Source of the DNA: Thermoanaerobaculia bacterium
Lineage (GTDB): Bacteria > Acidobacteriota > Thermoanaerobaculia > Gp7-AA8
DNA length: 63,193 nt
Reading direction: 5' to 3'
Assembly (NCBI GenBank): GCA_036399695.1
Contig: DASWMP010000008.1
Location: 1-63,193 of the forward strand
The notes under the pieces were generated by a model that ran no database searches, had not been told where the DNA came from, and was given only the letters and a program-made list of their open reading frames with translations. Below are positions 9,001-63,162 of this stretch, one piece after another (the stretch's first letter is position 1; the number at the start of each line of letters is the position of its first letter). The translations under genes and the position numbers were made by a program.

Positions 9001-12000
9001 AGCATCGCCGACGCACACCACGCCGGGAACGCGTCAGCGATCGCCGCCCGCGCCATCTCCAGATACGCGGCGGAGGCAAGCCGTCTCGCACCGTGAGATC
9101 CCTCGAGGAAGAGCTCCTCCCCCGTGAAGGTCGAGCTGTAGCGCTGCTCGTTCAGATCGGACGTGTTGCTGTGCACCAGCGGATGCACGAACCCGCTCGC
9201 AACCTGTGTGGCCGCCACCTCACGAACAGCAGGCAGCTCCAGCCAGCAGCGTTCCTTCGCGAACGGATACACCGGCAGGCTCACGCGCGACGGCCTGGTC
9301 TCGCCGTAAAGCTTCGTCCAGTCCAGCTCCAGCCCTTTGACCCAGAGGTCGAGCAGCTTGCTGAACTTCCGATTGGCGATCCACTTGTCGACGGTCTGCT
9401 GCAGATCGGTGTCGGTACTGAAGGCGGACAGCGACTCGTTTTTCCGTTTCGCCTGCCCCTGATAAGCGCCGTCGATCCCCTGCTCGCCGGCCACATACGC
9501 GCGCAGCTTCTCGACCAGCTCTTCGGGCGAGCTCACGACGAAGCCGAGACGCTCGTCCATCGCTTCGCGGCCGGCCTGGAGCGTGTACGCCGTGGCCACG
9601 AGGTCGAGAGTGCTCAGGCGCGGGCGGACGAAGTCCAGCAGGTCCTGCGCTTTCTGTAGCAGTTGCTCGGGCGTCCTCGCCGAGAGCAGGATGGCCACGT
9701 TGCCACCCGCGGCCGGCTGGGCGGCCGGCGCCGCATACTCCTCGATGAGCAGGTGGGCGTTCGAGCCGCCGGCGCCGAACGACGAGAGGCCGGCGATGCG
9801 CGGCAACTGACGGCCGTCGATGACCGGCGGCTCCCACGACCTCAGCTCCTGATTGACGACGAAGGGGGTGCTCTCGAACTCGATGTGCGGGTTCAACTGC
9901 GCCGAGTGGAGCGACGGCACGAGCTGCCGGTGCTGCATCTGCAGCAGGATCTTGGTGAGGCCCGCGATGCCCGCGGCCGATTCGCAGTGGCCGATGTTCG
10001 ACTTGGCAGAGCCGATGAGGCAGAAGCCGGTGTCCTTCGTGTAGTGCTGGAAGGCGCGGGTGAGCGCGGCGATCTCGATCGGGTCGCCGAGCTTCGTCCC
10101 GGTGCCGTGCGCTTCGATGTAGCTGACGTGCCGGGCGTCGGTCTTCGATTCCGCCAGGGCCCGGCCGATGGCGCTGGCCTGCGCCTGCGGGTTCGGGACG
10201 GTGTAGCCGTTCGTCTTGCCGCCGTGATTGAGGGCGCTGCCGCGGATCACGCCGTAGATGTGGTCGCCGTCGCGCTTCGCGTCGGACAGCCGCTTGAGCA
10301 CGACCACGCCGACGCCCTCGCCCGGGATGTAGCCGTCGCCCCCTTCGCCGAAGCTCTGGCAGTGGCCGTCGCTGGAGATGAACTGCCCCGCGCTCAGCAC
10401 GAGGTACTTGTTCGGATGGATGCTGACGTTGACGCCGCCCGCGAGCGCGAGGCTGGTGCGCCCGAGCTTCAGGTCCTGACAGGCTACGTGGATCGCCGTC
10501 AGCGACGAGGAGCACATGGTGTCGAGCGTCATGCTCGGGCCGTGCAGGTTCAGCGCGTACGACACGCGGTTGGCGATGCTCGCCGCGCTTCCGGCCACTC
10601 CGATCCTCGTCCCGAGCGCGCTGGCCTCGGCTCCGAACAACTGATACTCGCTGTACATCACGCCGGCGTACACGCCGACCTGACCGGCGAGGTCGTCGTT
10701 CTGCGGCACCTGAAGGGTGGCACGGGTGTAACCGGCGTCTTCGATGGCCATCCAGGCGTGCTGCAGGAAGAGCCGCTCCTGCGGATCGATCTGCTTCGCT
10801 TCCTTCGGCGAGATGTTGAAGAAGAGCGCGTCGAACTCGTCGACACCGGCGATGAAGCCGCCCCACTTACTGTAGTGATGGCCCCCTTCCGTGCGGTCCT
10901 CACTAAAGTAGGCGCGCCAGTCCCAGCGCGACTTCGGGACTTCGGTGATGCAGTCCCTGCCGTCGCGGAGGTTGTTCCAGTAGGCCGCGAGATCGACGGC
11001 CTCCGGATAGCGGCCGCTCAGGCCGATGATGGCGATGGGCTCATCGTGAGAGGCGGCGGCTTGCGCCGGGCGCCTGACGGCGGAGCGGCCGTGCCGGCGG
11101 GGCAGCCGCTCGATGGGACCGATAGGACCGATGGGACCAATGGGACTAATGGGACTGATGGGGCTCTGCTCTTTGGCGGCAGGTGCTGCCACCAGCGCCG
11201 AGAGGCGCGCGGCGTGGGCCTGCGCAAAGTAGCGCGTCAGCTCGGCCATCGTGCGGTACTCGAAGAACAGCGTCTTCGGAAGTGAGCCGAACGTCTGTTC
11301 CAACTGGGTCGTGAGCTTGAGCGCGAGGATCGAGTCGATGCCGTACTTTTCCCACGGGGCCTCGGGGTCGATGCGATGGGCCGGTACCTTCAGCAGCCCG
11401 GCCAGTTCCTTGCGCAGGTACTCCTGCGTCTTCTCCGCGAGGCCATCGGCTGAGACAGCGACGGCCGATGCCGGCGTTGCGGCTTCGACCGGACGCTCGG
11501 CGCTCCCGAAGAGGAACGCACGCAGCCGCGCCGTATCTCCTTCGGCGACGAGCACCTGGTCGTGCGCCAGCGCCAGGCTGTGATGGAACGCCTGCAGTCC
11601 GGTGGCGGACTGCATCGGCTGTACGCCCATCGTGCGCTCCAGCACTTCCTGCGTGGCCGCGTCGATGCGCATCCCGCCGGCCTGCCAGAGCGGCCAGTTG
11701 ATCGAGCGCGTGCGGCCGTGGCGTTCGCCCGCCGCCACCTGCCGGTTGCGATGGGCGGCGAAGTGATCGAGGAAGGCGTTCGCTGCCGCGTAGTCGGCCT
11801 GCCCGACGTTGCCGATGGCACCGGCGAACGAGGAGAAGAGGACGAAGAAGTCGAGCTGAAGGTGGCGGCTGGCGTGGTCGAGATGGCAGGTACCGGTGAC
11901 TTTCGGGCCGAGGACTTCGGCGAATTCGCCGGCGGACTTTCTGAGGATGAAGTTGTCGGCGACGCGGCCGGCGCAGTGCAGGATGCCGTCGAGGCTCCCG

Positions 12001-15000
12001 TGCTCGCCGATGATCATGTCGACGAGCTGCTCGACCTGACGGAGCTCGCCCAGATCCACGCGGCGGTAGCTCGCGCGCCTCTTGTTCGCGCCGAGCGCAT
12101 CGAGGAGCGCCTGCTTCTGCGGTGTGAGCGGGGAGCGCCCGGTCAGCACGACGCGCGAGCCGGCGGTGCGCTCGAGGATCTCTTTGGCGAAGACGAGGCC
12201 CAGCGCGCCGAGGCCGCCGGTGATGAGATAGACGCCCCGATCTTTGAACGCTGCCGCGGCTGCCGGTGAGGACGGAATCTCTTCCCAGCGCAGCACCTGC
12301 CGCCGTCCGCCGTCGTAGCGCACCACCGCGTCGGTGGCCGTCGTCTTCTCCGCTTCCAGCCAGCGCGCCAGATCCTCGGTAGACGTCTGCATGGGAGCGA
12401 GGAGGAGCTGACCGGTGAGGTTCGGATTCTCCAGGGCCGCCGTCTTCAGCAAACCGGAGAGGCCGGCGAAGACCGCCTGCTCCCCGTCGGCCGGTACGAC
12501 GATCTGCACGAGGACGCGGCCCTGCGGCTTCGCCTCCAGGATCGTGCGGATCTGCTCGAAGGAGCCGAGCGCGTACGCGGAGTAGCGCTCCGCCAGCCCA
12601 TCCGCGCCGCGCGCGTGCAGCGCGACGCACTCGGTGGTTAGCAGCAGGGCGGAAAGATCATCAATGTCCACGGCCGCCAGCTCACAAAGCGCCACTTGGT
12701 GAGCGGTGAACGGGGAACCCATAGGACCTGTGGGCTCAAGGGCTATCCCATGTGTCCCATTGGTCTCATCTGTCCCATCGTGCCTCGCATCCCTCCACGC
12801 CGGTACCGCCAGTATGGCGCCCGCCGCACTCGTAACCACCGCGCCGGCGCTCAGCTTGCGCGACGAGAGTCCCCGCATCTGCACGCAGACGTTCCCGCTC
12901 GCGTCGCACAGATCGAGATCGAACTTCACGACGTGATCGGCGGCGTGACTGCCGGCCGCGTAGCGGACCCACGCCACCATCTCGGTGGTGCAAGGCGCGA
13001 CGATCCGCAGCGTCTCCAGCGCGAACGGCAGGCGCGGCTCCCCTGCATCGCCGGCCAGCAGCCCGACGCACGACTGCATCCCGCTGTCCATGAGCGACGG
13101 ATGCAGGACGTACTCGCTCGCAATCTGTCCGGCAATCTCCGGCAGCCGTAGTTGCGCCAGCAATTGCCCGCTGCCGCGATGAATGTCCGTGACTCCGCGG
13201 AACGACGGTCCGTACAGGAGCCCCATCTGTCGCCAGGCCGCGTACAACCCGCCGGGCTCGAGGTGCGACGCCCCCATCTCCCGCCGGAGCTGCTCGATGT
13301 CGAGTCTCGCGGTTGCCGGTTCGCGGCTCAGGACCGCGCGGCCCTGGCAGTGCACGACCTCCGCGTCCCCCTCTCCGCTGTAGACCTCGAAGACGATCCG
13401 GTCCTGCTCGTCGGTCGCCAGAGCGATGCTGACCTGCCGCGCACCGTCGACGACGATCGGCTGCACCCAGACCACGTCCTGCAGCTCCAGCACGACACCG
13501 TCGGCACGCTTCGGCAGGGCCTGCTCGATGGCCGCCCGCGCCATCTCCAGGTAGGCCACGCCCGGCAGCACCTTACGCGCCGCCTCGCCGCTCGCCTGCA
13601 CCTGGTGATCGGCGAGGAAGAACTCGTCACCGGTGAACGTCGACCCATAGCGCTGCTCGCTGAGATCGGAGATGTTGCTGTGCAGCAGCGGGTGGATGAC
13701 GGCCGTGGCCTTACCGGCCGCCAGCGTGCGCTGCGCGGTGGGCTCGATCCAGTAACGCTCCTTCGCGAACGGATAGAGCGGCAGGAGGATCCGCCGCGGC
13801 CTGGCCTCGCCGTAGAACGCGTTCCAATCGAGCTCGATCCCGTTGACCCAGAGCTCCAGCAGCTTCGCCAGCTTCTTCTCGGCGCGCCATTTCTCGATGA
13901 CCGACTGCTGCAGGTCGGTGTCCTGGCTGATGATGCCGAGCGTCGCCTTCGTCCGCTTGCCTTCTCCGCGGAAGGCATCGGCGATCGGCTGTACGCCGTC
14001 GGCGTAAGCCTGCAGCTTCTCCGCGAGCTCGTCGATCGAGCTGACGACGAAGCCGAGACGCTCCTCCATCGGTTCCCGTCCAGCCTGGAGCGTGTACGCG
14101 AGCTCCGCGAGATCGAGCGACGCGGTCTCGCGGCGAACGAACGCCAACAGATCCAGCACCTTCTGCTTCAGTTGCTCGGCCGTGCGTGCCGACAACGGCA
14201 CGATCGTCTTCGCACCCGGCACCGCCGTCGCGGTCCGCCGCGCCACACCCGGTGGCGGCACGTACTCGCCGATGACGAGATGCACGTTCGTGCCGCTGAA
14301 GCCGAACGAGCTGATGGCCGACCGCCGCTTCTGTCCCGGCGCGGGCGTCCAGTCCTGCAGGCGGCCGTTGACGTAGAAGGGGCTGCCCGTCAGGTCGATG
14401 TGCTCGTTGACGCGCTCGAAGTTGACCGTCGGCGGAAGCTGTTTGTGCCGCAGCGCGAGGATCAGCTTCTGCACGCCGGCGATGCCGGCCGCGGTGAGGC
14501 AGTGACCAATGTTGCTCTTCACCGAGCCGAGGGCGCAGTACTGCTGCTCCTGGGTGTACTTGGCGAAGGCGTTCTTCAGCCCTTCCACTTCGATCGGGTC
14601 GCCCAGCTTCGTGCCGGTGCCGTGCGCCTCGATGAGCTGGATGCCGGCCGGATCGATGCCGTAGCGGTCGTAGACGTCCTGCTGGAGGCGCGTCTGCGAC
14701 TCAGGATTCGGCGCCGTGATGCCGTTGGTCTTGCCATCCTGATTGATGCCCCACCCTTCGATGACGGCGTGGATGATGTCGCCGTCGCGCTGGGCGTCGG
14801 CCAGCCGCTTGAGCAGCACGACGCCGACGCCTTCGCCCATGACGAAGCCGTTGGCGCGCTGATCGAACGTGTAGCACTGGCCGTCCGCCGAGAGCATCCC
14901 CGCCTGCGCCGTCTTGATGTGCATCTCCGGCCCGGCCATGACGTACACGCCGCCGGCCAGGGCGAGATCGCTGGCGCCCGAAAGCAGGCTGTCGCAGGCG

Positions 15001-18000
15001 TCGGCAATCGCCACCAGCGACGACGAACAGGCCGTGTCGATGGAGACGCAGGGGCCGCGCAGGTTCAGAAAGTAGGAAATGCGCGCCGCCAAGATCGACG
15101 TGGCATCCCCAGTGAACCCCTCGGCGCTGAGTTGCTGCGTCCGCGACAGCAGGTGGTAGTCGCCGAACGCGCAGCCGACGAACACACCGCACTTGCTGCC
15201 CGACAGCGACCGCGCGTCGTACCCGGCGCTTTCGATGCTGTGCCAGCAGGCCTGCAGAAACAGCCGCTGCTGCGGGTCGATGCTTTCCGCTTCCCTCGGC
15301 GAGATGTTGAAGAAGAGCGGGTCGAACCGGTCGTACTCCTCGAGCGCGCCGAGCCACCGGCTGTACGTCTTCCCGGCCACGGCGCCGCCCGGCTGGTAAT
15401 ACGCATCGAGGTCCCACCGCTCCGGCGATACCGGCGTGATGCAGTTGCGCCCGTCGGCGATGTTCTGCCAGAACTCCTCGAGGTTCTTCGCCCGCGGGAA
15501 CTGGCCGGCCAGGCCGATGACGGCGATCGGCTCGGCCGTCCGCGCGGCCGCCTGAGCCTTGCCGAAGCGGGACGCCGTGCCGCTGCGCCAGGAGGTGAGC
15601 TTCTGCGATGTGGCCGCGATCGGCGGCGTGGCCACGCCGGCACCCGGACGTGCGATCTCGAGCTTCGGCGCGGGCGCCACCACCGGCGCGGCGGCGGCAG
15701 GCGCCGCCTGCTCGCGCACGAGCGTCCCCTGCTTCTCCGCTTCCCCTTCGACGTAGCGGGCGAACTGGCTCAGCGTCGGGTAGCTGTAGATGCGCGTCGC
15801 TTCGATCGACGTGCGGTATTTCTCGTTGATTTTCCGGACCCAGGCCACGCCACCGATGGAATCGAGCCCCAGATCGATGAACTGGGTGTTGTCATCGATG
15901 TCGCTCTCCCGCATCTGCAGCTCGTTGGCGAGGAGCGTTCTGACTGTGGCGGAGACGTCCGTCTGTCCGGCTTGATGTGGGACAGACACTCCTGCCTGTC
16001 CTGCGTTCCCCTCATGTAGGACAGGCACTCCTGCCTGTCCCCCGTCGCCATGGACACCGTCACGATGGACAGGCAAGAGTGCCTGTCCTGCAACATCCTG
16101 CGCGGCGAAGTTCGTCTCGATCTGCGCCAGCGTTGCGGCCTTGCCGACGAACGTCTGCTCGTGCATGGCCAGCTCGCGGCGATACGTCTCCGCGAGCGGC
16201 TGCTGCATCGCGTCGCGGAACTGTTGCTTGAGGGCGATCAGATGGTGGCGCGGAGCGCGGGCAATCTTCCGGGCCAGAGCCAGCGCCGCGGGGACGACCT
16301 GATTGCGGGAGACGACCGGCAGCCGCACGCCTCTGGCGCGCAGCTCTCCGCCGGTGTATTGCTGCGCCGTCAGCAGGCTCTCTCGTGCGATGTCCTCGCC
16401 GAGCTTGTCGCCGATGATCCAGGTCGCGCCGGCGCCGGGCGTGAAACCGTAGTCCATGTAGGGGCTGACGTAGCGGCTCTCCTCGCTCAGCACGATGGCG
16501 TCGGCGAACATGCCCAGCGCCCAGCCGGCGCCGATGCCATGTCCCTGCATCGCGGCGATGACCGGGAGCGCACAGTCGAGCGGGAACTGGAACACCTTGA
16601 CGTCGGTGAAGCGCGCTTTGCCTTCGTGGATCGCCAGCAGCGTCTCTTTCGTCCCACCGGAGGCAAAGTAGCTGTCGAAGCCGGTCAGGATCACGACCTT
16701 GCAGGCCGGCATCCGCTCGATGTTCGCGAACGCCTCCTGCATCCCCTCCACCAGTGCTTCGGAGAACATGTTCTTCGCGACCCGGTCCTCCATCGTCACG
16801 ACGACGATGCCGTCCGGGTGCGCGGTGGCCGTGACGACGCTCGACTGCAGCGGGATGGGTGTGGCGGTCTTGACGTCCGCCGCTTCGAGCTCGGAGTCCG
16901 GCGGCGCAGGCGCCGCGCTGCTATCCATGTCGAAGAGCGGCTGCTGCGCCACCACACTCCGGGAGAGCGCAGCCGCAAGCTCCACGGCCGTCGAAAGCAC
17001 CTGGTCGTCGCCGGCCACGATCGCGCTGCCGGCGCGCTGTTGCAGCTCGGCACCGGAGTAGGCATCGCCGGTGAGCAGAAACTCACGGCCGGCATCGCTG
17101 CCGAAGCGGTGCGTGAACGCGGCGGCAGCAGCCGGAGCGAGGCCGGCGGCGGAGTATGTGCCGCTGCTGCTGTAGACCGTTGCGTGGCACAACTGGCCGA
17201 GGAGCCAGGCGTTCCCGCTGGCGTCCCCGTCGAAGGCGGCGACGACGGCAGACCGCGACGCCGCGAGCAGCGGCTGCAGCTCGAGGACGGCGCCGTACGA
17301 CAGGTCCGCGGGGATGCTGGCCAGAACGACGGCCCGGCCGTCGCCCTGCTGCTGCATCGCCGTCAGGAGGTCGCGGAGGCCCGGCACCACGTCCTTCGCC
17401 TGCACATCCGCGTCGAACCTGATGACCACGACGCCGTCGCCGCGCTCGGCGACGCGGATGTACGGCGACGGTGACGTCAGCGGCTGGGCAACCACGGCCG
17501 GCGCGGGCAGCGTCGCCTCGACGGCGCGCAAGGCGGCGACCGGAACGGCAACGTTGCGCGTCAGGTGCTGCTTCAGCAGGCGCAGAGCCTCGCGCGACTT
17601 CGTCGTCAGCGTCGCGGCCAGTTGCCGGGCGTACGTCTCGACGTCCGCCCGCGGCAGGACCGGGCAGGTCCACCCGCGGGCCTGCAACTCGCGTCCGGTC
17701 AGCGTCCGGGAGACGTACAGCAGGTCCTGCGCGCGCACGTGGCCGAAGCGGGCACTGAACAGCGCCAGCTCGGCCGCCGCGGGATGGAGCGCTTCCTGCG
17801 CATCGGTGAAGGCGTAGGCCGCCTCTTCGCTGCACACCATCAGACCGCACAGCGCGGCGGTCAGGAAGGAGGCGCCGAGCGTATCGCCGTGCAGGACGGC
17901 GATAACCGGGTACGGGAAGGACGCAAGGTCGCCGTAGAGACCCTGCGCGACGGCTTCGTCGTGGGTCTCGCGTCCGCGCGGCAGCGCCTGCTCCAGGCCG

Positions 18001-21000
18001 GCGATCAGCAGGACCTTCGTCGACGGATCGTCCTGCACCTTCGCCAGCGCCTGCTTCAACTGGGCGATGACGGTGCGCGGGCTGGACGACGGCTCGAGGC
18101 GGATCGAGAAGAGGCCCTGGCCGTCGTCGAACAGCCGGACGGCCGGCGCGACCGCGGCGGCCACGCGGAGCGCGGCATTGACCAGCGTGATGGGCGCGCG
18201 TCCGGCGGACGGTGCGGGCACGCTAGCGCCCGGAGTCGCCAGAGAGATCGAGGGACGTTTCTTTCGCTCCGGCGCCACGGAGACAGCTTCGACCGGCGGC
18301 AGGAACGTCACTTCCGTGCGAGCGGGCGTGGCGGTGGCGCGGGCCGGTAACGGCGCCGCGGCCGGAGCTGTGGGCTCCTCGACCGCCATGACCGGACTCG
18401 CGCCATGCTGCAGGACCGCGCGTCCCTGGCAGTGGACCGTCTCCCGCTCCCCTTCGCGGCTGTAGATCTCGAAACCGATCTCCTCTTCGTCGCGCGGCAG
18501 CAGGGCGATGCAGACTTCGATGGCGGGCGTGACGGCGACCGGCTCGCCCCAGGCCACGTCGTGCAGTTCCAGATGCGTATCGTCCGGAATCGTGGCCGCC
18601 CGCTCGATCGCGGCGCGGGCCATCTCCAGGCAGGCTTCCGGCGGAAGGAGGGTCTGCCCGTTGGCGCTGGTGCGGAGGAACGATTCGTCGCCGCTGAACG
18701 TCGAGCTGTAGCTCTGCTGCCGCAGGTCGGAGGTGTTGCGGTGCAGCAGCGGGTGGAGCACCGCGGCCGTGGCCTGCTTCGCCGGAGCCGGCGCGACGGG
18801 CGGCGGCAGCTCGATCCAGTAACGGTCGCGGGCGAAGGGGTAGACCGGCAGGCTGACGCGGCGCGGCGTGACGCCGCCGTACAGCTTCTTCCAGTCGACG
18901 TCGAGGCCTTTCACCCAGACGTCGACGAGCTTCGCGAGCTTGCGCGAGGCGATCCAGCGGTCGATGGTCTGCTGCAGGTCGGCGTCGTTGCTGAAGACCG
19001 ACAGCGCTTCCCGGTTGCGCTTTACCTGTCCTTCGTAGACGTCCTCGAGACCCTGCCGGCCGCTCACGTACGCCTGCAGCTTCTCGGCGAGCTGGCCGGC
19101 CGAGGTGACGACGAAGGCCAGCCGCTCGTCCATCGCTTCCCGGCCGGTCTGCAGCGTCCAGGCCGTGGCGGCCAGGTCGAGCGTGTCGATGCGCGGGCGG
19201 AGGTACGCGAGCAGGTCGGCCGCTTTCTGCCGCAGTTGCTCCGGCGTCCTCGCGGAAAGGACGACCACCGCTTCCGGCAGCGCGACCGTACGCGCCGCCG
19301 GAACCTGGTACTCCTCGACGATCAGGTGCGCGTTCGCGCCCCCGGCGCCGAATGAGGAAATGCCGGCGATGCGGGGCTGCGTCTGCCCGTCGATCACCGG
19401 CTGCGCCCAGGGCCGCACCTGCTGGTTGACGACGAACGGCGTCGCCGCAAAGTCGATGTGCGGATTCAGCTCCGCCGAATGGAGCGACGGCACCAGCTCC
19501 TGATGCTCCATCTGCAGCAGGACCTTCGTCAGGCCGGCGATGCCGGCGGCCGACTCGCAGTGGCCGATGTTCGACTTGGCCGAGCCGATCGGGCAGAAGC
19601 CGGCCTCCTTCGTGTACTGGCTGAAGGCCTTGGTCAGCGCGGCGATCTCGATCGGGTCGCCCAGCTTCGTCCCGGTGCCGTGCGCTTCGATGTAGCTGAC
19701 GTGGCGCGCGTCGGTCTTCGATTCCGAGAGTGCGCGGGCGATGGCGCTGGCCTGCGCCTGCGGATTCGGCACCGTGTAGCCGTTGGTCTTGCCGCCGTGA
19801 TTGAGGGCGCTGCCGCGGATGACGCCGTAGATGTGATCGCCGTCCCGCTCCGCCTCGGAGAGCCGCTTCAGCACGACCACCCCGACGCCCTCGCCCGGGA
19901 TGTAGCCGTCGCCGCCTTCGCCGAAGCTCTGGCAGTGGCCGTCGCTGGAGATGAACTGGCCGGCGCTCAGCATCAGGTACTTGTTCGGATGAATGCTGAC
20001 GTTGACGCCGCCGGCGATCGCCAGGCTGGTGCGCCCCTGTTTCAGGTCCTGACAGGCGATGTGGATGGCCGTCAGCGACGAGGAGCACATCGTGTCGAGC
20101 GCCATGCTCGGGCCGTGCAGGTTCAGCGCGTACGAAACACGGTTGGCGATGCTGGCGGCGCTGCTGCCGATGCCGAGACGGTTGCCATTCGTGCTGGCGT
20201 CGAGCCCGAGCAACTGGTACTCGGTGTACATCACGCCGACGTACACGCCGGCCTGGCCGGGCAGATCGCCGGCATGCGGTACCTGCAGCCCCGCGCGCGT
20301 GTAGCCCGCGTCCTCGATGGCCATCCAGGCGTGCTGCAGGAACAGCCGCTCCTGCGGATCGATGTGCTTCGCCTCTTTGGGGGAGATGTTGAAGAAGAGC
20401 GGGTCGAATTCGTCGACCCCGGCGATGAAGCCGCCCCACTTGCTGTAGTGGTAGCCGGGCTGGGTCCGGTCCTCGTTGTAGTAGGTGCGCCAGTCCCACC
20501 GTTCTTTCGGGACTTCGATGATGCAGTCCTTGCCGTCGCGCAGGTTCTGCCAGTAGGCCTGGAGGTCCACCGCCTCCGGGTAGCGGCCGCTCAAGCCGAT
20601 GATGGCGATGGGCTCATCCTGCGGCGCCGGCGCTTGCGCCGCCGGCGTGGCCGGATTGTCCGTGCGGCGGCGGGCGGAGCGGCGGTTCTCCCGGGAGGGG
20701 AAAACGATGGGACCGATGGGACCAATGGGACCTATGGGTTTTTCATTGGTCCCACCGGTCTTCGCGGCAAACAGCGTCTCCAGCCGCGCGGAGTGCGCCT
20801 GCGCAAAATACCGCGCCAGCTCGCTCAGCGTCTGGTACTCGAAGAAGAGCGTCTTCGAGAGCGCGCCGAACGTGAGCTCCAGGTGGCCCGTGAGCTTCAT
20901 CGCCAGGATCGAGTCGATGCCGTAGGTCTCCAGCGCGGCCTCGGGGTCGATGCGGTGGTACGGGAGCTTCAGCAGCTCCGCGGACTGGCGGCGGAGATAC

Positions 21001-25700: not shown

Positions 25701-28700
25701 CGGTCCCATGGGTCCCATAGGGCCCATAGGTCTCTCGCGGCTCACGCTGAGCCCGAGCTTCTCCACCAGCCGCTCCGCGTGATGCTCCGCCAGGTATCGG
25801 GCAAACGCCCGCACCGTCGGGTGCTCGAAGAAGATCGTCGGCATCAACTCCAGCCCGCAGGCGCGGTTCACATGGTTGGCAAAGCCCGTCAGGCTGATCG
25901 AGTCGAACCCGAATTCGCTCAGCTCCGCGTCGAGATCGACATCCTCTTTCTTCACCTTGAGCAGCGTGCCGACGGCGTCGACGAGCCACTTTTCGATGCT
26001 CTCGCGCAGCTCCGCACGGTCGCGTGGTGCCTCGCTCCCGACGACGCGCGCCGTCTGCGGAACCGGCATCGCCGGTGCGGCCGTGCGCCCCAGCAGCTTC
26101 TCCACAAGCTTCGCGCCGTGCGTCTTCGCCAGATGAGCGGCGAAGGCGCGCACGGTCGGATGCTCGAAGAACACCGTCGGCATCAGCGCAAGGCCGAAGG
26201 CCTGATTGACGTGGTTGGCCAGGCCGGTGAGGCTGATGGAGTCGAACCCGAACTCGCTCAGCTCCGCGTCGGGATCGACGTCCTCTCTCTTTACCTTGAG
26301 CAGCAGGACGACGGCTTCGGCGAGCCAGCTTTCGATCTTGGGCAGTAGCGCTGCTTCGTTAGGCGCACCGCTCTGCGCAGGGGCGGGGGCGATGGTACCG
26401 ATGGGACTGACAGGACTGATAGGACCCATGGGAAGAGACGCGGTGACGGGCGCGGTCACCGGCACGGTCGCACGACGTTTGTGCCGGATCACGCCGTTGC
26501 TTTCCGCGATGATGATCTGCTGCCCCAACCCGTACGCGCCATGCGCGGGGAAGGAGACGTGGCCGAAGCCTTCCTCCTCCAGCACTGCTTTCCAGCTCGT
26601 GTCCGTGAGGCCGGGGCTGCCTTCGATGCGCAGCTCCGGATCGGCGTAGGCCCACCAGCCTTCCAGCAGCCCGAAAGTGAGGTGCATGAAGGCGCTGTTG
26701 GTGCTGATCTCGTTCAGCACGAGGATGCCGTTCTTCTTCAGCGCCGCTTTCGCATTGCGCAGCGTGTCGCGCATGCGCTGCGTGGCGTGCAGCACGTTCG
26801 CGGCGAGGACGACGTCGTACGCACCACGCTCGACGCCCTGCTCATCGAGGCTCTTCTCCACGTCCACCACGGCGTAGCGCAGGTAGTCACGTCCGGCGCC
26901 GTAAGCGTTCTCGCCATGCACGAGGAACCACTTGGAGACGTCGCTGTAGCAGTACTCCCGGACGTGCGGGCGATAGTCGTCCAGCTTGCGCAGGAGCCCT
27001 TCGCTGCTCCCGCCGGTGCCGGCGCCCAGCTCCAGCAGACGCAGATTGAGAGAGGCGTCCTCGCGGGCGCCACGCTCCTCGACGTACCAGCCAACGACGT
27101 CGGCCATCACGCCGTTGAAGTAGTCGGCCACGCTGTTGTTCTTGTAGACCGCGCCCACGAGGTCCAGCGAGGAGCTCGGGAAGATGACGTCCGTTGCCCG
27201 CCGCTCGCCGCGCAGGATGGGCCGGAGGCTGCGCATCGTGGCGTCGACCAGCTTCACGTGAGCCTGCATGCCGGGGTGGGCTTCGGACCAGCGCCCCGTT
27301 TCCTGCTCCCACTCGCGCCAGAGTTGTCCGGCGTCCGCTGTTGCATCGAGCGAAGCGCCGTGTGCGGCGAGGAGGCGCAGGGTCTCTTGCGTCCAGCGCT
27401 CGTAGGCGCTGATGATGCCGGCCGGTGTTGCGGCGACCGCGCCGGCGGGATTGCTTCCGAGGGTGGCCATCTCCGCCGCCAGCAGCTTCACCAGCATGGC
27501 GTCGAGCTCCTGGCGCTCCTGCTGCCACGACGGCGGCCATTCGCGCACGTCGCGTTCCGCCAGCAGCGTGGCGGAGACGGAGGGCGCGTCCTGGCGGGCG
27601 ACCGTCAGGGCCTCCCCTTCCGACACGCCGAGTGCCCGCAACGCTTCCGGTCCGTTCGTCCGGAGCAGGCCGGCCCGATCGAGCGGTCCGCTCAGAAGCT
27701 GCTCCAGGCCGGCCATCGCTTCTTCGGCCTCGAGCGAGCCCCAGCCCATGCGGGCCATCCGCTCCTGATGCTCGGGCGCCGCCACGACGCCGACGCTCCC
27801 CCAGTAGCCCCACTGCATGACCTTCACCGGATACGCCGCCGTGGCCGACTGCCAGTCGGCAAAGGCATCGGTGAACGTGCAGCCGGCGGCGTAGTTGCTC
27901 TGCCCCGGCGCCTTGAGGAAGCTCTGCAACGAGGAGAAGTAGAGGACGAAGTCGAGCGGGTCCTGGCCGAACACCTGCGCCAGACGGACCGAGACGTCCA
28001 CCTTGGCGGCGAGCGCCGCACGGAACTGCTCTTCGGTCATGTTCGCCAGGCTTTTGTCGATGAGGACGATCGCCGAGTGGATGACGCCGTCGATGCGGTT
28101 GTAACGCTCCAGGATCAGCTCGCGCGCCCGCTCCAGCTCCTCGCGGCTCGTCGCATCCGCCGCGATGTAGAACGGACGTTCGCCACGTCCGCGCACGACC
28201 CGTTCCTGCGCCGCGGCGATGGAGGCGTCCTTCTCCCGCCGCCCGATCCAGGCCACGCGCGCGTCGTAGTTGGCGATGAGGTACTCGCTGAGGACTTCGC
28301 CCACGCCACCGGCGCCGCCGATCACGACGTACGCCCCTTCGGGCCTGAACTTCGGCTGGGGAGCCGGCGCCGAGGCGCATTCCACCAGCAGCTCGCGATA
28401 CCACTGGCCGTCGCGATGGGCCCAGCCGTCGCCGCGCGCATCGAACGGCAACCGCGCGACGTCCGTCCACGGCACATCGCCGTCGACGTCGACGAGCCGC
28501 ACGTTCCAGTTCCGGTACTCCTTGGCCATCGACCCGAGCAGCCCGCGCACGCTGGCGTGGGCCGGGTCGATCGCCTCGCCGCGACGGACCTGCTGCGTCG
28601 CGTTCGTGATGACCGTCCAGGCCAGCTCGCCGGCGCCGTAGCCGTCGCGCAGCAGCGCCTTGATCAGGCGGAACCCGAAGAGCACGCCGTGCTCCTGGGC

Positions 28701-31700
28701 GCGAATGAAACTCTCCGCGTCACCCGCGGAGGTGGGCGGCAGAATCCAGCACAGATGATCGATGCGCGTGCCCTGCAATTGCGCGGCAATTTCGTCGATG
28801 GTGGCGGAGCCATCGATGTTGATGAGCTCCGCGCCCGCAATCCCGGCACGCCCGCCGATGACCACCACCCGCTCGCCGGAGAGGGACTCGGTGAATTCGG
28901 GCTGCACGGCGTTCCAGACCGCCGCCAGCGTGACGGCGCCGCCGGTGGCCACGGGGAACGATGGGACCAATGGGACAGATGGGGTTCTCACAGGTCCGAT
29001 CTGTCCGACAGGTGCCATTGGTTGCATCGTTGCCTTTGCCCCCGCCTCGACACCACGCCGCTCCCGCGCCCGTGCCGCAAACCCTTTCACACGGACGCAC
29101 AAACGTCCCTGCGCATCACAGATATCCACGTCGATCTTCACGACGCGGTCACGCTGATGGCTGCCCGGCGCGAAGCGCACCCAGGCCATCATGTCCCCGG
29201 CGCATCGGGAAACGATCTGCACCGACTCGAGCGCGAAGGGCAGCCGCAGCTCGGAGGCGGACCAGCCGTCGATCAGGCCGAGGCTCCCCTGCAGCGCGCT
29301 GTCCATCATGCTGGGGTGAAGGACGTACTCGGCCGCGCTCTCGCGCACCTTTTCCGGCAACGTCAGGTGCGCCAGCAGCTCGTTCTGCCCGAGGTTGAGA
29401 CTCCTGATTCCACGGAAGGAAGGGCCGAGCATCAGCCCCTTCTGCGCGAACGCTTCATAGATGTTATCGGCGCGCACCGTGCCCTGCTGCATCCGCTGCT
29501 GGAGTCCGGCGACGTCGAGCAGTTCCGGCGCTGATTCAGGGCGCCACGCGGCGCGGCCCTGACAGTGGACGACGTCCGTGTCCCCGCCGTGGCTGTAGAT
29601 CTCGTATTCGATCTCCCCCTCTTCGTTCTCCGACAGAGCGATGCTGACCTCCGTCTCCGCCGTGACGACGAGCGGTTGCGACCAGACGTTGTTGACCAGC
29701 TCCAGGACGGACGCTTCGGGCCGGACCGGCGTGGCCTGCTCGATTGCCGCACGAGCCATCTCCAGGTACGCCACCCCGGGCAGCACCCGCTCCGCGCCGC
29801 AGCCGTCGGCCGCCACGCGATGATCGACGAGGAAGAACTCCTCACCGGTCAGTGTCGAGCCATACCGCTGGACGTCGAGGTCCGACGTATTGCGGTGGAG
29901 CAAGGGATGGAGCATCGCCGGCGCCGCCCCAGCGTGCACCGCCGTCACCGTGGACGGCGCGGTGTCGAGCCAGTAGCGGTCGCGGGCAAACGGATACGCC
30001 GGCAGCGGCAGGCAGCGGTACCGCCGGTCGCCATACAGCGGCGCCCAATCGATCTCCAGCCCCTCCGTCCACGCTTCGGCGATGCGCGCGAGACTCTGTT
30101 CCTTCCACCAGCTCGCGATGACTTCCACGCCCGGCGCGGAGGTCCGGTTGCCGCCTTTGCCGCGCACCGCGACACGTCCGCGACGGGAGTTCTCCGGCTG
30201 CTTGCCGTCGAGGATCGCGGCGAGCGCCGTCCGCAGCTCCTTCATGCTGCTGGCCACGACCGCGAGGCGCTCGCGCATCGCCTCACGCCCGGCCTGCAGC
30301 GTGTAGGCGATGTCGTGCAGTTGGTCCGCGCTCACCGCGCCGAGATAGCTCTCGAAGTTGCGGACCAGCGCGAGCAGGCGGTTCTCGGTACGGGCAGAGA
30401 AGACGAAGAGTGCAGGGCGGGCCGCGTCGTAATCGCGGCTCAATGCCGGAGCGGGGCTGCCCGCGTATTCCTCGAGGATCACGTGCGCGTTCGAGCCACC
30501 GGCGCCGAACGAGCTCACACCCGCGCGGCGGGGAAGCTGCGCGGGACGCGGCCAGGGCGCGAGCTCGCGCTGCACCTGGAAGCGGCTGCGCTGGAAGTCG
30601 ATGTTCGGATTCAGTTGCTCCGTATGCAGCGTCGGCGCAAGTTGCCCATGCTGCATCTGCAGGATGACTTTGACGATCGAGGCGACGCCAGCCGCCGCTT
30701 CGAGGTGCCCGATGTTCGACTTGATCGAACCGATGGCGCACTCGCGGCTGTCGTCGCCGCCGAGTCCGAGCGCCTTTTCCAGCCCCGCAAGTTCGATCGG
30801 ATCGCCGAGCGACGTGCCCGTGCCGTGTCCGTCGATGTAGGAGATGGTTCGCGGGTCGACGCCGCCGCGCTTCAATGCTTCGGCGATGACGTTCCCCTGC
30901 GCCTTCGGGCTCGGCACCGTGTAGCCGTTGGTCCGGCCGCCATGGTTGATGGCCGAGCCTTTGATCACCGCCAGGATGGAATCGCCGTCGGCAACCGCGC
31001 CGGCGAGAGGCTTGAGCAGCAGCGAGCAGACGCCTTCTCCCGGCACGTAGCCGTCGCCCCCCGCACCGTAGCTGCGGCAGCGGCCATCCGTCGAGAGGAA
31101 GCGCCCCCGCGACAGGAAGAGATACTTGCTGTTGGTGAGCGACAGGTTCACGCCGGCGACGATCGCGGACTGGCTTTCCCCTTCGCGGATGCTCTGACAG
31201 GCCACGTGCAGCGCGGTCAACGACGACGAGCACGCCGTGTCGATGGCCATGCTCGGCCCGGCCAGATCGAGGTAATACGAGATGCGGTTCGGGATGCTGT
31301 AGAGCAGGCTGCTCGGCGCGATGGGCGTGCCCGAGAGAGTGGCCTCGACGCCCGCGCTTTCGTACGGCTGCCAGAGCGCGCCGACGAACACGCCGACACG
31401 GCCGCCAGCCAGCGTCCGCAGGCGGTTCGGTGTGTAGCCGGCCCGCTCGAGCATCTCCCATACGACCTCGAGGAGCAGCCGTTCCTGCGGATCGATCAGC
31501 TCCGCCTCACGCGGCGAGATGTTGAAGAAGCCGGCGTCGAAGCGGTCGACGTCGTCGATGAAGCCGCCCCATTTGCCATAGATGCCGTTCTGTTCCGGAT
31601 CGGCGTCGTAGTACTTGCGGTAGTCGAAACGGCCGGCCGGGATCTCGGTGATGCAGTCGCGCCCTTCGCGGAGCACGTCCCACAGCTCGTCGAGGTTGCG

Positions 31701-34700
31701 CGCGCCGGGGAAGCGGCCCGCCGCGCTGACGATGGCGATGTCGTCCTGGTTCTGGCGAGCGCTGCTCACAGCTTCCGGAGCGCGTGCGCCGTCATGTTGT
31801 TCGGGCTCGCTCTGCGTCGCGACCACGCGCCGTTCGCTCACCGGTACGGCCGGCAGCGCCGCCAGCAGCTTCTCGCGATGCATGTCCAGGAAGTAGGCGC
31901 TCAGTTCGTCGATCGTCCGGTACTCGAAGAACAGCGTCTTGGACAGCGGCCCGAAGACGTGCTCGAAGATCTCGTTCAGCTCCACGACCATCACGGAGTT
32001 GACGCCGTACTGGTCGAAGCCCGTCTGGACGTCGAGCTCCCCCTCGGCGACGCCGATCGACGGCGCGATGAGGGACCGGAAGTAGGCACGCGCGCGGTCG
32101 TCGAGCTGTTCACCTGCTCCCATAGGTTCCATAGGTCCCATAGGTCCCATGGCGGGCTGAGCGACGGGCGTGATCTCGGCTGCCGGCGCCGGCTTCTCCG
32201 CGCCACGGGTCAGCACGTCCGCGTGATGCAGGACGAAGTAGCCGGCCAGCTCGGTGATGTTCCGGTATTCGAAGAAGAGCGTCTTCGGGAGCGGCCCGAA
32301 CACCTCTTCGAAGCTCTGGTTCAGCTCGACCACCATCACCGAGGTGACCCCGTAGTCGTCGAACTGAACGGAGAAGTCGATCTCGTCGGCCGCTAAGCCA
32401 ATCGGACCGGCCACGAGCGATCGGATCAGCTCCTGAGCGGCGGTGGCCAGCACTCCCTCTGCCAGCGGAGTCCGGGACGCGCTCTGCACCACTCTCGCTC
32501 CATGTGCCGCGGCGGCGCCCTGCTTCAGCGCGCGGATGGCGAAGCCGGTCAGGCGGACGACGACCTCACCGTCCATCCGGCAGACGTCGAGATCGAACTT
32601 CCTCATCTCCTCATTGCGGAGGTTGGCGGGCCGGGGCCGGCAATAGACGTAGCACTCGGCCGGAATTGGCGCGAGCACCTCGAGGTCGTCCATGCCGATC
32701 GGTACGTACCAGCGGTCGTTGCCGCTGCTCCGCTTGTTGCTGACGAGCGCCGTCTGGAACGCACCGGTCAGCAGCGCGGGATGCAGCACGTAATCGTCGA
32801 TCGTCCCGGCGACCTCCGCCGGCAGTACCAGCTTCCCCAGCGCCTCGGTATCGCTGAGCGAGATCTGCTGCATCGGCTGGAACGTCGTGCCGACGATGAG
32901 CCCCTCACCGCGGATCTGCCCGTAAACCTGCGCCGGATAGCGGGTCTCGTCACAACGCGCGGTCACGACGGCTACGTCGATCCGCGAATCGGCCGCCTTT
33001 GCCGGGTCGCCGGGCGTGACTTGCCCCATCGCGTGCAGGCGCTTCTCCCCGTCCGGCCCGAAGCTCACGACTTCATACGCGAGCTGATCGTCCTTTTTCG
33101 TGATCTGCACGTGCGCGCTGAAGTCTTCGGCCGGCGACGAGAGCGGGCTGGCCCAGTAGTTGTGCGTCAGCCTCCTGGCCACGCCGGTGCCGAGCACGAG
33201 ATCGGCCGCCTGCCGCGCCATCTCCACGTAGCAGGCGCCGGGCATGTTGTACTGCCCGTCGACGACGTGGTCGCGCAGGTAGAACTCGGCGGTCTTGAAG
33301 ACGCGGCTGAACCGGAGCTGCTGCCGGTCCGAGCGGTCGACGTCGATGAGGGAGCGGTTCCACCGCGCCACATCGCCGTTCGCTGCGACCGGCTCCGCTT
33401 TCCCGATGGCAATGAGGTGCGCGGCGAGCTTGTCGACGGTGTCGAGATCGAAGAAGAGCGTCGGCTTCAGATCGGCGCCGAAGTGCTTGTTGACGTCGTT
33501 GGTGACGCCGAGGAGCGCCGCGGAATCGAGACCGAGCTCACCGAGCGTGCGTCCGCCGGCGATGGCGTTGGGTGCGAGTCCCAGGTATCCGGCGAAGATC
33601 GTCTTGAGCTCGCGCTGAAGCCGGGCGAGCGGAGCTTCGGCCTCGGGTTGCGCCTGTGCTACGCGCACCGGCTGGTCGAGCCCGAGGCAACGTTCGATCT
33701 TTGCTTTGTCTCCGTCGAGGGCGATGAGCTGGTGCGTCTCGGGGAACGTCTGCTTCGCGAGCGCCAGTGCGGTCTCGAAGATGGCCACCCCGTCCGCGGT
33801 CGGCAGCGGCTTCATGCCGAAGACGCGCAGCAGATGGCGCTCCTCTTCGGCAGTCACGCGCATGCCACCCTGCGCCCACAGCGGCCAGTTGATCGCCAGG
33901 CTCACGCCTGAGCGGCGCTGCTCCGCCGCCAGCTCGTTCCGCACTTGCGTGAAGCTGTCGAGGAAGCTGTTCGCGGAGGCGTAATCGGACTGTCCCTGGT
34001 TGGGCATCACCGCGGCGATGGACGAGAAGACGACGAAGAAATCGAGCGGCTCGTCGCGCGTGAGGTCATCGAGGTTCAGCGCGCCCTCGATCTTCGGGGC
34101 GAGCACGCGCGCGAACGAGTCGTGCTGCTTGCGCAGGATGAACGCATCCTCGATGACGCCCGCCGCGTGAATGACACCGTCGATGGCGGGATGGACGGTC
34201 TTGATCTCCGCGAGCACGGCGGCGAGGGCGTCGCGATCGGTGATGTCGACGCTGAAGTAGTGACACTTGCCGCCGGCGCTCTCGATGTCGGCGATCTTCG
34301 CGGCGATCGCGTCAGTCATCGCGCTGCGGCCGAGCCAGAGGACCGTGGCGCCGTACGTCGACGCGAGATGCCGTGTGAAGACGGAGCCGAGGCCGCCGTT
34401 GCCGCCCGCGACGACGTAGACGCCCTTGCGCTTCAACAGCGGGGCCGCGGCATCGCCACCCTGAGCCGCCTCATGAACGATCCGGCGCACGTGACGTTCT
34501 CCACCGCGATACAGCACCTCGCGCAGCGCCGGCGCGTCCGCGGCCGCGGCCAACTCCAGCGACACGGTGCGAGCCAGCTCGTCGGCGGAGAGACCGTCGA
34601 CGCCAAGCGTCACGTAATCGAAGTTCGGGTTCTCGTACTTGAGCGTCCTGGCGAAGCCGCCGACCGTCGCATGGACCGCGCGGGTGAAGTCGTGTCCGAG

Positions 34701-37700
34701 CGGATGCACATAGACGAACTGCACGCGCTCGCGCAGCTTCGCCTTCAGCGCGGCCTGCGTCAGATACAGCACGCTGAAGATCGTGGCGTCCAGCGCGGCC
34801 GAAGCGTCGCCGGCGCCCCCGGCGTTCATGCCCCAGAGATGCGCGATGCGCGAGACCGAAATGCCCTGTGCTGCGAGCTCCTGCAGCAGACGCTCATAGC
34901 CGGCACGGTCGCGCGGATCGAGCTCGTAGACCGCGGGCTCCAGCTCGGTGGAACCGCTGACCTCATCGGTCCTGGCTGTCCCATTGGTCCCATTGGTCCC
35001 ATACGCCGCAGGCGGCCGCACGAGGACAACCCTTTCGTAACCGCCGCAACGCGCGAAACTCTCGGCGGTCTCTACGTCCTGCGCGAAGAGCACCAGCGTC
35101 TTTGCCGCGACGCCCGGCTGCGCGGCCGGATCGCTCCGCGTCCACACCGGCCGGTAGTAGATGTCGCCTCGGCGTTCGGCCGGCGCTGTCGCCGGCCGCT
35201 CGGCGAGCGGACGCTTCTGAAAGTTCCGGAGCTCCACCAGCACGTTGCCGTTTGCGTCGACGAGCGTGGCGTCGAACGCGGTGCCGTTCCCGTCCGGCGA
35301 GCCGGCGGTGCTGACGGTGGCGTGGACGAAGCAGCGCTCTTCGACAGCCTTGAACACCTCGGCCGTCTCCAGGAAAAAGGGCACGAACTGGCGTCCCTGG
35401 CGCCGCAGCCCCAGAAGGGTCAGCGCCGTCACGGCCTGAAAGACGCCATCCATGATGCTGGGATGCAGGACGTAGCCTTGCGCGTCTCCGCGCAGCGCGT
35501 CGGGCAGCGTGACTTCGGCGAGGATCTCCCGGTCGTTGTGCACGCACTCGTCGAGCACCTGAAACGTGCTCCCGTACGCGAGCCCGTGCCGCTCGAACAG
35601 CGCGTAGAGATCGGTCTTCGCACCGCGGCTGCTGCACCTCGCCCGCACCGCGGCGAGGTCCACGGTACGGCGCCGGCCCGGCTCCGCGGGACGGACCGCG
35701 ACCACACCCTTGCTGTGGACCGTCTGACCCTGGACCAGCTCGAAGCTCACCTTGTCCTGCTGCGGGGTCAGCCGGAGCTCCACCTGAACGTCTCCAGCCT
35801 CGATCACGACCGGGGCGATCCAGTAGACGTTCTCGAGCACCTGCACGCCGTTGCCCAGCTTCGTCGCGGCCGCGGCCCGCGCGAGCTCCAGGTGCATCAC
35901 ACCCGGGAGCATCGGCCTGTGCTGCACCACATGGTCGCGGATGAAGAAATCGGCCCGACGCAGCACGACTGACGTAGCGCCTGGCGCCGGCTCGTGTTTG
36001 ACGGGCTCCGGCACGATCGCCTTCGACGGCCGCGCACCACCCGCTTCAGTAAACCAGCAGCGCTTCCGCGCGAACGGATAGGTGGGCAGCGGCAACCGCC
36101 GTGCCGGCGACGCCGCGTCAGTCCAGTCGATCGCCTCACCCTGCACCCAGCGCGTCGCCAGAGACGCGTCAGGTGTCTGCCGATCGCCGGAAGCGTGCAG
36201 CACGATTCCCGGCTTCGTCCCTTCACCGCCGGCGACGTAGCCCCGCAGGGTCTCGGCGACCTCCTCGATGGATGACGCGACCACCGCCAGCCGTTCGTCG
36301 AACGCATCCCTGCCGCTCTGCAGTGTGTACGCGACGTCGCGCGGGGAAAGACGTGCGGCACTGTCGCCGTGCTCGCGCGCCGCGAAATAGTCGGCCATCG
36401 ACGCCGCGTACGCGTGCAGCCGCCCCTTCTTCGCGGACAGCGGGAAGACGTAAGGCCGTTCCTCGGTCTCCGGATCGGCGGCCACAATCGGCGCTTCTTC
36501 GAGCACGACGTGCGCGTTGACGCCGCCCATGCCGAAGGAGCTGACGCCGGCTCTTCTCGGCGCTTCACTCGTGTCCCACGGCGCCGCATCCACGGCGACG
36601 TAGAACGGGCTGCCGTCCAGCTCGATGTAGGGATTGATGCGGTCGAAGCTCCGGACCGGCGGGATCGTCCGGTGCTTGAGCGCCATGACGACCTTCACGA
36701 TGCCGGCGACGCCCGACGCGCTTTCCAGATGGCCGACGTTCGTCTTCACCGCGCTCAGCGCGCACCGCCGCGTGTCGTCGCCGGCCTGCAGCGGGAGCTC
36801 CCGCACCAGTTCGGCGAACGCCTTCTTCAGACCATTGATCTCGATCGGGTCGCCCAGCGGCGTCCCCGTGCCGTGCGTCTCGATGTAGCCGATGGAGCGA
36901 GGATCGATCCCGGCACGACGCCACGCCTCACGCACCACCGCCGCCTGGGCGTCGGTACTCGGAGCGGTGAGGAAGTTGGACCGGCCGCCATGATTGATGG
37001 CCGAGCTCCTGATGACCGCGTGGATGTGGTCGCGGTCGCGCACGGCGTGGTCGAGCCGCTTGATGAACAGCACCCCGACACCTTCGCTGCGCACGTAACC
37101 GTTGGCCGAGGCACTGAAAGTGTTGCACCGTCCGTCCGGCGAAAGCATCCCGGACTTGCTGTGCGAAATGAACATGGTCGGCGTCAGCAGGGTGTTCACC
37201 CCGCCGACGATGGCCGCCTCACACTCGCCGGTGGTGATGTCGCGGATGGCGTTGTGCAATGCGACGAGACTGCTGGAGCAGGCCGTGTCCACCGCCTCAC
37301 TCCGTCCCCGCAGGTTGAAGAGATACGACACACGGTTCGCCAGGATCGAATGCACGGTGCCGGTGGAGATGTACGGCGCGATGTCGTGCCGGCTCTCTCG
37401 CATCAATTCGCTGTAGTCGTTTTTCGACACGCCGGCATACACGCCGATCGTCCGGCCCGACAGGCTGGCCACGCTGTAACCGGCATCTTCGACGGCATGC
37501 CACGCGGTCTCCAGAAAGAGGCGATGCTGCGGGTCGATGAACGCCGCTTCGTTGGGCGCGATGCCGAAGAAGAGCGGATCGAATTTGTCGACGTCGTCGA
37601 TGAACCCGCCCCACTTGACGTTGGTCTTGTTGGCCTCGACACGCGGGTCGCCGAAGTAGCGCCGCCAGTCCCACCGGTCGGCCGGAACCTCACGGATGGA

Positions 37701-41572: not shown

Positions 41573-59302
<17,730 letters not shown>

Positions 59303-59306
59303 GTGA

Positions 59307-63154: not shown

Positions 63155-63162
63155 GGATTGAT

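Follow-up and report, generated by a model that had tools for sequence, protein, structure and literature searches.

Short DNA repeats within the genes of large assembly-line enzymes raise the question of whether they are kept for the peptide they encode or whether it is the DNA that has spread. The question arises here from a window of 63,193 bp (the whole stretch of DNA analysed, namely the terminal 63,193 bp of the 120.7-kb Joint Genome Institute (JGI) contig Ga0334956_000012 from a biocrust metagenome, sample 3300034139), in which eight tracts of a tandemly repeated nonamer, GGTCCCATN in one orientation and NATGGGACC in the other, interrupt two polyketide synthase (PKS) genes. The best named homologues originate from Thermoanaerobaculia (Acidobacteriota), which is also the probable host lineage. 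Propagation at the DNA level rather than as selected peptide repeats, as put forward in a preliminary description of this locus, is supported by four frames of reading, by codons rare in the host, by homologous proteins free of such tracts, and by intergenic hairpins of the same nonamer in related genomes. The eight tracts are probably, with room left for doubt, the in-frame, selection-filtered survivors of a dispersed nonamer-array hairpin element and not peptide repeats. What is new is that the same nonamer constitutes a dispersed repeat family in Thermoanaerobaculia and in other soil phyla.

Eight nonamer tracts between synthase domains

The window contains exactly eight arrays of GGTCCCATN/NATGGGACC, with three to six units each, all of which were relocated at the positions given in the preliminary description:

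11112-11165, minus strand: tract 1, six direct units, plus strand (NATGGGACC)6; gene A residues 3769-3786, SPISPISPIGPIGPIGPI, ACP-KS linker
12716-12782, plus strand: tract 2, degenerate inverted pair; gene A residues 3230-3252, HDGTDETNGTHGIALEPTGPMGS, DH-KR linker
20706-20754, minus strand: tract 3, four units, then one inverted, forming a hairpin; gene A residues 572-588, GGTNEKPIGPIGPIGPI, ACP-KS linker
25696-25731, plus strand: tract 4, four units, plus strand GGTCCCATN; gene B residues 4035-4047, RPMGPMGPMGPMG, ACP-KS linker
26391-26435, minus strand: tract 5, five degenerate units; gene B residues 3801-3815, LPMGPISPVSPIGTI, MT-ACP linker
28960-29022, minus strand: tract 6, degenerate inverted pair; gene B residues 2938-2959, QPMAPVGQIGPVRTPSVPLVPS, DH-KR linker
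32119-32154, plus strand: tract 7, four units; gene B residues 1894-1906, PAMGPMGPMEPMG, ACP-ACP linker
34978-35004, plus strand: tract 8, three perfect units; gene B residues 944-953, AYGTNGTNGT, DH-KR linker

These are 9-bp tandem repeats proper, with head-to-tail copies in excess of chance: arrays of two or more consecutive units, with no more than one mismatch, number eight in the window and zero in 100 shuffles, Tandem Repeats Finder (TRF) returned a period of 9 at the tracts, and the 8-mer GGTCCCAT/ATGGGACC has 12 exact copies on both strands, every one within the tracts, where base composition leads one to expect about 2.3. A more sensitive scan, which required three consecutive units with at least 19 of 24 positions matching (a level rarely attained by phase-preserving shuffles), recovered these eight loci and no others. 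According to the Pfam boundaries, all eight fall between domains (three ACP-KS, three DH-KR, one MT-ACP and one ACP-ACP), and scans of the two nonribosomal peptide synthetase (NRPS) open reading frames (ORFs) for nonamer tracts were empty; both the confinement to linkers, never a catalytic domain, and the tract-free state of the NRPS genes had been described before and hold. The chance that all eight lie within the 37.5 kb of PKS is P = 0.015 if all positions are taken as equal. Since tracts 1 and 3 (11112 and 20706) are paralogues and thus represent one event, the number of independent loci is seven, for which P becomes 0.026.

The genes concerned and the neighbouring NRPS are as follows, the minus strand carrying every large gene of the window, whose G+C content is 67%:

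81-22469, minus strand: gene A, 7462 aa, trans-AT PKS; domain order (Pfam) KR-ACP-KS-DH-ECH-ECH-ACP-KS-DH-KR-ACP-KS-DH-ECH-ECH-ACP-KS-KR-ACP-KS
22710-37835, minus strand: gene B, 5041 aa, trans-AT PKS; domain order (Pfam) KS-DH-KR-ACP-DH-ACP-ACP-KS-DH-KR-MT-ACP-ACP-KS-DH
41573-59326, minus strand: gene C, NRPS, TubC_N-(C-A-T)x5-R

The assignment of genes A and B as trans-AT PKSs follows from the absence of AT domains and from RhiE-like KS linkers, to which in-line ECH pairs are added in gene A.

Three tracts are degenerate (12716, 26391 and 28960), and in three (20706, 28960 and 12716) inverted units adjoin direct ones, so that the inverted-array architecture of the intergenic elements described below recurs within the window. 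The adjacency of direct and inverted copies at 20706-20754, remarked upon from the outset, is borne out; as DNA this tract folds with -18.4 kcal/mol (z -5.3), and tract 6 gives z -2.8. As a separate observation, (NATGGGACC)n with n of at least four, as found on the plus strand at 11112-11165 and in intergenic arrays, matches the G3-N6 G-quadruplex consensus on its G-rich strand, a match to the consensus only; in tract 1 the G-rich strand is the template strand of gene A.

Given how common the repeat is in the metagenome, chimeric joins during assembly have to be considered as a source of the tracts. The repeat is indeed abundant in the sample, the depth over the tracts being 5- to 20-fold that of the flanks, and contigs of an independent Logan assembly of the same sample (X1) break at it, yet only within tract 7 (32119). 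Tracts 1-6 and 8 are crossed by X1 contigs with zero differences and are therefore not mis-assemblies; moreover, reading frame and domain order remain coherent over every tract. An artefact is thus extremely improbable, and it was rejected on the agreement of the independent contigs. Several other X1 contigs at host depth (about 10-16x) join a minus-orientation array to a plus-orientation array via loops of 8-29 nt and look like classical hairpin elements, and two further soil metagenomes contain dozens of array-bearing contigs with unrelated flanks. For metagenomics at large the repeat constitutes an assembly hazard, contigs breaking and cross-linking at it.

Reading frames, codons and tract-free homologues

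Translation of the tracts yields the peptides (S/G)PI, PMG and NGT named at the outset, but the view that the nonamer encodes three unrelated tripeptides has to be revised. Of the six possible frames, the tracts use four (GPI, GPM, GTN and VPL/S): GGT CCC ATN gives GPI, ATG GGA CCN gives MGP, NAT GGG ACC gives (N/D/H)GT, and GTC CCA TNG, in the second half of the tract at 28960, gives VPL or VPS, while the frames that would encode SH[RW] and WDx are unused in the window tracts. The arms of tract 6 are read in an MGP-like frame and in the VPL/VPS frame, respectively; its plus strand reads ATGGGACC, yet the protein reads VPLVPS. Furthermore, Gly (GGN) and Pro (CCN) codons are reverse-complementary and ATN pairs with NAT, such that the reverse complement of GGN-CCN-ATN, shifted by one base, is ATN-GGN-CCN; GPI and PMG are therefore one and the same Gly-Pro-hydrophobic triplet.

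The codons of the tracts deviate strongly from host usage. Only one of 27 tract Gly codons is GGC, the other 26 being GGT, GGA or GGG, compared with a GGC use of 64% in the host (P = 5e-11); only one of 30 Pro codons is CCG, the other 29 being CCC, CCT or CCA, compared with a CCG use of 69% (P = 4e-14). Asn is always AAT, Thr is never ACG, and the G+C content at third codon positions (GC3) is 0.50 in the tracts versus 0.87-0.91 in the genes.

The nearest homologues of gene B, P0001 (55% identical) and P0002 (54%, labelled Thermoanaerobaculia), are without tracts; their linkers are ordinary and Ala/Pro-rich, and in the alignment to both proteins tracts 4 and 6 stand out as insertions. None of 120 homologous PKS proteins checked for at least three such triplets contained them, nor did any of the 16 hits of a short protein query around tract 4, among which the best linker-spanning hits were 43-50% identical and the closest partial fragments 62-75%. 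A search of metagenome contigs for orthologous clusters returned two loci at 30% identity only, and the source contig itself was not recovered by it. Within gene A, tract 2 amounts to about 14 extra residues in the loop AVPAW...HQVALCEL when compared with the tract-free loop AAPAW...HHVVSCEL of the paralogous module.

These findings bear on selection at the peptide level, according to which each linker would have independently evolved a short Gly-X-Y spacer of the collagen-like or polyproline-II kind, with the DNA motif as a by-product of the complementarity of Gly and Pro codons. Collagen-like (G-X-Y)n proteins, including tail fibres of phages and giant viruses, do resemble the tracts, the nonamer encoding GPM, GPI or GTN with Gly at every third residue in three of the four frames used; Bacillus BclA is a length-variable protein of this type. 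True collagen-like ORFs, from Firmicutes and Bacteroidota as well as from phages and giant viruses, likewise often contain the nonamer, and a related strain has kept tract 4. Collagen-like runs, however, comprise 15 to more than 100 diverse, peptide-selected triplets, whereas the tracts consist of three to six, use a Gly-free frame (VPL/VPS) as well, and keep the exact nonamer in codons that are almost uniformly rare in the host; neither a long uninterrupted run nor a Pfam Collagen hit (PF01391) was found in genes A and B. Hairpin arrangements within tracts, the lack of such tracts in the 120 homologous PKSs, and the existence of identical, non-coding arrays in related genomes all argue in the same direction, and peptide selection as the origin of the tracts appears improbable.

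Rare codons might also act through translation: rare-codon stretches, Pro-Gly runs or mRNA hairpins at domain borders would slow the ribosome and thereby aid domain-wise folding. The tracts do fall precisely on domain borders, with the potential for a hairpin in two of them. On the other hand, a tract is present in no more than eight of the numerous linkers that separate the domains of genes A and B, the homologues manage without any, and the same elements occur between genes; with the analysis resting on sequence, pausing is considered quite unlikely, somewhat more so than peptide selection.

The nonamer array as a dispersed hairpin element

A scan of genome contigs for CCCATNGGTCCCATNGGTCC, with one genome per species, returned at least 114 stretches, which fall into two classes. 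The first comprises collagen-like G-X-Y ORFs of low-GC Firmicutes and Bacteroidota together with nearly all of 86 viral hits (phages and giant viruses), the match lying within the ORF, and is a true peptide repeat; phages as carriers of the second class were accordingly rejected, the viral matches being nearly all of the collagen-like kind. The second consists of dispersed arrays in high-GC metagenome-assembled genomes (MAGs), among the matches listed mainly from Thermoanaerobaculia and other Acidobacteriota, but also from Planctomycetota, Verrucomicrobiota, Hydrogenedentota and others. About 33 of the matches listed belong to Thermoanaerobaculia or to one other Acidobacteria MAG, and a single genome has up to eight loci.

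The typical dispersed element is a hairpin of 70-100 bp, 5'-(NATGGGACC)n - short loop - (GGTCCCATN)n-3', and among the matches listed 26 array pairs show this minus-plus order versus a few in the reverse one. Near-perfect hairpins are formed, with folds of -52.7 kcal/mol (z -14) at locus L043 and -43.4 kcal/mol (z -11) at L027. With intergenic placement judged by the third-codon-position G+C of the flanks, 34 elements among the matches listed are intergenic; 15 lie between convergent, 2 between divergent and 17 between tandem genes, which amounts to a bias towards gene 3' ends (convergent versus divergent, P = 0.002).

Some arrays are long and single-armed, with up to 22 units. Those of about 20-22 units in one orientation in Acidobacteria and Hydrogenedentota MAGs (L014:7695-7889, L017:747-925, L062:5076-5262 and L097:671-846) behave like minisatellites and not like hairpins. 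At L053:1720-2250, four tandem composite units of about 135 bp each contain one nonamer hairpin and a common spacer, so that the element itself has become part of a higher-order repeat.

In-frame copies are also found outside PKSs. A 1116-aa membrane protein of Thermoanaerobaculia SMAG_U11946 (L061; GC3 0.86) contains SHWSHWSHRSHRSHGTNGTDGTDGTNGT in frame, and a 716-aa ORF of a Burkholderiaceae MAG (L112), chelatase-like by eye, contains HRTDGTDGSDRTDRT. In two Thermoanaerobaculia species, orthologous proteins (L086:7100-7230 and L094:990-1130), which we take, judging the sequences by eye, to be GT9-type heptosyltransferases, have the element at a shared position, though in different frames, with IGPMGPMG in the former and DRTNRTDGTNRTDGTNRPPIRPIGPI in the latter. 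Hence the nonamer tracts are not peculiar to PKSs.

The closest known analogues are the Rickettsia palindromic elements (RPE) and the repetitive extragenic palindromes (REP) with their hairpin-forming doublets (REPIN), although the nonamer element is a member of neither kind. RPEs, which Ogata et al. reportedly described in 2000, are dispersed palindromic repeats with intergenic copies as well as copies inserted in frame into ORFs. The nonamer element shares this distribution, with the eight window copies and those in L061, L086, L094 and L112 on one side and the intergenic copies on the other, and it likewise occupies sites at which the protein tolerates insertion, the tracts lying outside Pfam domain matches and the element of L086 and L094 at a common position. 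RPEs are, however, unique sequences of 100-150 bp restricted to Rickettsia, whereas the nonamer element is built from tandem 9-bp units, varies in length, occurs in several phyla and is mostly reduced to one arm in genes.

REPs, REPINs and bacterial interspersed mosaic elements (BIMEs) are high-copy hairpin repeats (PMC3116915, PMC3733652), a REP being defined as an imperfect palindrome of 20-40 bp with a GTAG or CGTC tag at one end (PMC3733652). The nonamer element resembles them in its inverted pairs, its ability to form hairpins and its preference for positions downstream of genes; the extragenic, high-copy, paired state is found in the related genomes and not in the window, where all copies are intragenic. 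REPs are lineage-specific and consist of a single 20-40-bp palindrome, whereas the nonamer recurs across phyla and its stems comprise 30-45 bp of tandem units. The hairpins measure 70-100 bp, their ends read ATGGGAC...GTCCCAT, and GTAG is met with only sporadically. A gapless search, which may miss short or imperfect copies, saw no direct repeats flanking 26 hairpin elements, so that the target-site duplication expected of a miniature inverted-repeat transposable element (MITE) was not seen. Because of the deviating tag and size and the lack of target-site duplications, the element was classed neither as REP nor as MITE. Within the 8-kb loci around the elements no recurrent transposase-like ORF was found, nor was a REP-associated tyrosine transposase (RAYT) seen there.

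Dyad-symmetric coding DNA, of which both orientations or arms are translated, is shared with PARCEL repeats and with the palindromes of Nematomorpha. PARCEL units, however, measure 25 residues and form whole surface proteins, and the Nematomorpha palindromes encode conserved protein regions, while the nonamer unit contributes three residues to disordered linkers. Rfam has no family for 17 hairpin-bearing loci or the window; in the literature the 8-mer matches primer sequences only, 17-mers of the repeat match nothing, and reports on repeats in PKS linkers were not found. Tentatively, and with rather less confidence than is placed in the origin of the eight tracts, the GGTCCCATN arrays may be regarded as a previously undescribed multi-phylum repeat family of tandem-nonamer hairpins, which spreads within genomes and colonises gene 3' ends as well as in-frame protein linkers, assembly-line synthases included, thus acting as a natural linker-insertion scan and as a source of length and orientation polymorphism. 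If true, a new small repeat element of poorly studied soil phyla would stand beside REP, RPE and MITE, built from tandem 9-bp units and tolerated inside genes in several frames. Such repeat DNA can apparently establish itself in enzyme genes at any point where the protein tolerates an insertion.

Remodelling of the tracts and the duplication in gene A

Tracts 1 and 3 occupy equivalent positions within a tandem duplication of gene A and share three units that agree in 25 of 27 bases (93%), as compared with a mean of 79% for the complete 236-column alignment. The paralogues diverge upstream of the shared units, tract 1 continuing with three further direct units and tract 3 with one inverted unit, such that six direct units stand against four plus one inverted. 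Along these lines, a 548-nt contig from the soil run X3 matches the flanks of tract 1 with 92-97% identity, while 134 bp of the window (11069-11202) are replaced by 137 unalignable nucleotides; since bases 197-234 of this contig match tract 4 on the plus strand, the X3 relative has an array at the tract-1 site in the opposite orientation. The variant is longer by 3 nt, and the frame is kept. Tract 5 is present in a relative from X2, and tract 4 is present in the X3 relative in the same orientation, unchanged as far as the contigs extend. The comparison, made on Logan contigs, which break at arrays, indicates that tracts are remodelled at the DNA level and that some persist over 10-15% divergence. 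The slippage-prone behaviour once proposed for the tracts is in part supported by the paralogues and the X3 variant, and for an adaptive tuning of linker length no support was obtained.

The tandem duplication of gene A, of about 9.6 kb, consists of block Y (3824-8401 versus 13730-18274, 77% identical) and block X (9125-12512 versus 18695-22100, 76% identical). It is relevant to the proposal, contained in the preliminary description, that the arrays promote module recombination, their micro-homology driving duplication, deletion or exchange of PKS modules. Arrays of 27-54 bp do repeat in one orientation several kilobases apart, assemblers connect different tracts, and tract 2 lies in the 1.2-kb segment between the duplication units, 204 bp from the end of block X. 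The latter had been described as adjoining the joint of a 9.3-kb duplication, of which the proximity of about 200 bp to a block end stands, whereas the duplication is the larger one given above and the tract is an insertion in a conserved loop with a homologous counterpart in the paralogue. Block X encloses tracts 1 and 3, which are not at its edge and whose flanks align on both sides. The ends of block Y (3824 and 13730), moreover, fall on LPxYPFx5W motifs at 3878 and 13781. LPxYPFx5W is an exchange-unit boundary of trans-AT PKSs at which modules recombine (PMC11260071); given there as LPTYPFx5W, it follows the KS as a conserved sequence of the protein and is not a DNA repeat, and the nonamer tracts do not coincide with it. 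A coincidence of joints with tracts is not supported by the duplication checked here, one breakpoint of which falls on the motif; nothing found links the arrays to duplication breakpoints, and a role in recombination has to be regarded as about as unlikely as translational pausing, if not slightly more so. At the same motif, a DH domain follows in the upstream copy and is absent from the downstream copy.

Coming back to the dispersed hairpin element as the source of the tracts, a sequence of four steps can be envisaged. An array or hairpin copy would be seeded into a gene. Survivors would then be those copies whose total length is divisible by three, which contain no stop codon and which lie in a structurally tolerant linker, a filter that is suggested by the location of all eight tracts in linkers and by the use of only the four mildest frames. 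Subsequently, units would be gained, lost or inverted by slippage or hairpin-mediated rearrangement and would decay by point mutation, as indicated by the difference between tracts 1 and 3, the X3 variant and the degenerate tracts 2, 5 and 6. Inside genes the second arm would mostly be lost. The Gly/Pro-rich tripeptides may serve as an inert spacer, and a benefit to the PKS need not be assumed. We infer that intergenic copies exist in the host genome as well, that the tracts were inserted and did not arise in situ, and that they are neutral.

Several points weigh against this derivation. The regular Gly in three of the four frames used would leave room for some protein-level preference. Neither a mobilising gene in the 8-kb loci nor a target-site duplication at the 26 elements, nor any other trace of insertion, was found. 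The conservation of tract 4, in the same orientation, in a strain with flanks 85-90% identical makes at least some tracts old and stable. The taxonomic labels of MAGs may include binning errors. Finally, the host survey extends over the 63-kb window, to which any statement on the host applies, whether on the intergenic form or on the share of PKS linkers per base of tolerant sequence.

For PKS engineering, the tracts mark sites in ACP-KS, DH-KR, MT-ACP and ACP-ACP linkers that naturally accept 9-22 extra residues in frame. By the same token, caution is advisable with low-complexity linker peptides, which need not be selected features.

The window contains a second repeat. At 59390-59764, a 21-bp unit repeated 17.9 times occupies the 447-bp gap immediately upstream of NRPS gene C. 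The coding-strand unit approximates GACTCAAAGCTTTGACTCCGC, and every unit contains the perfect 12-bp palindrome TCAAAGCTTTGA. The 21-bp spacing corresponds to two helical turns, a geometry appropriate for a dimeric DNA-binding protein that would use the array in the manner of an operator. Precisely at the edge of this array ends a further NRPS ORF (59774-63187, minus strand; TubC_N-C-A), which terminates within the A8 core motif (...NIEYLGQVKL*), is without the C-terminal subdomain of the A domain and without a carrier domain, and shares the frame of gene C; it probably represents a truncated remnant.

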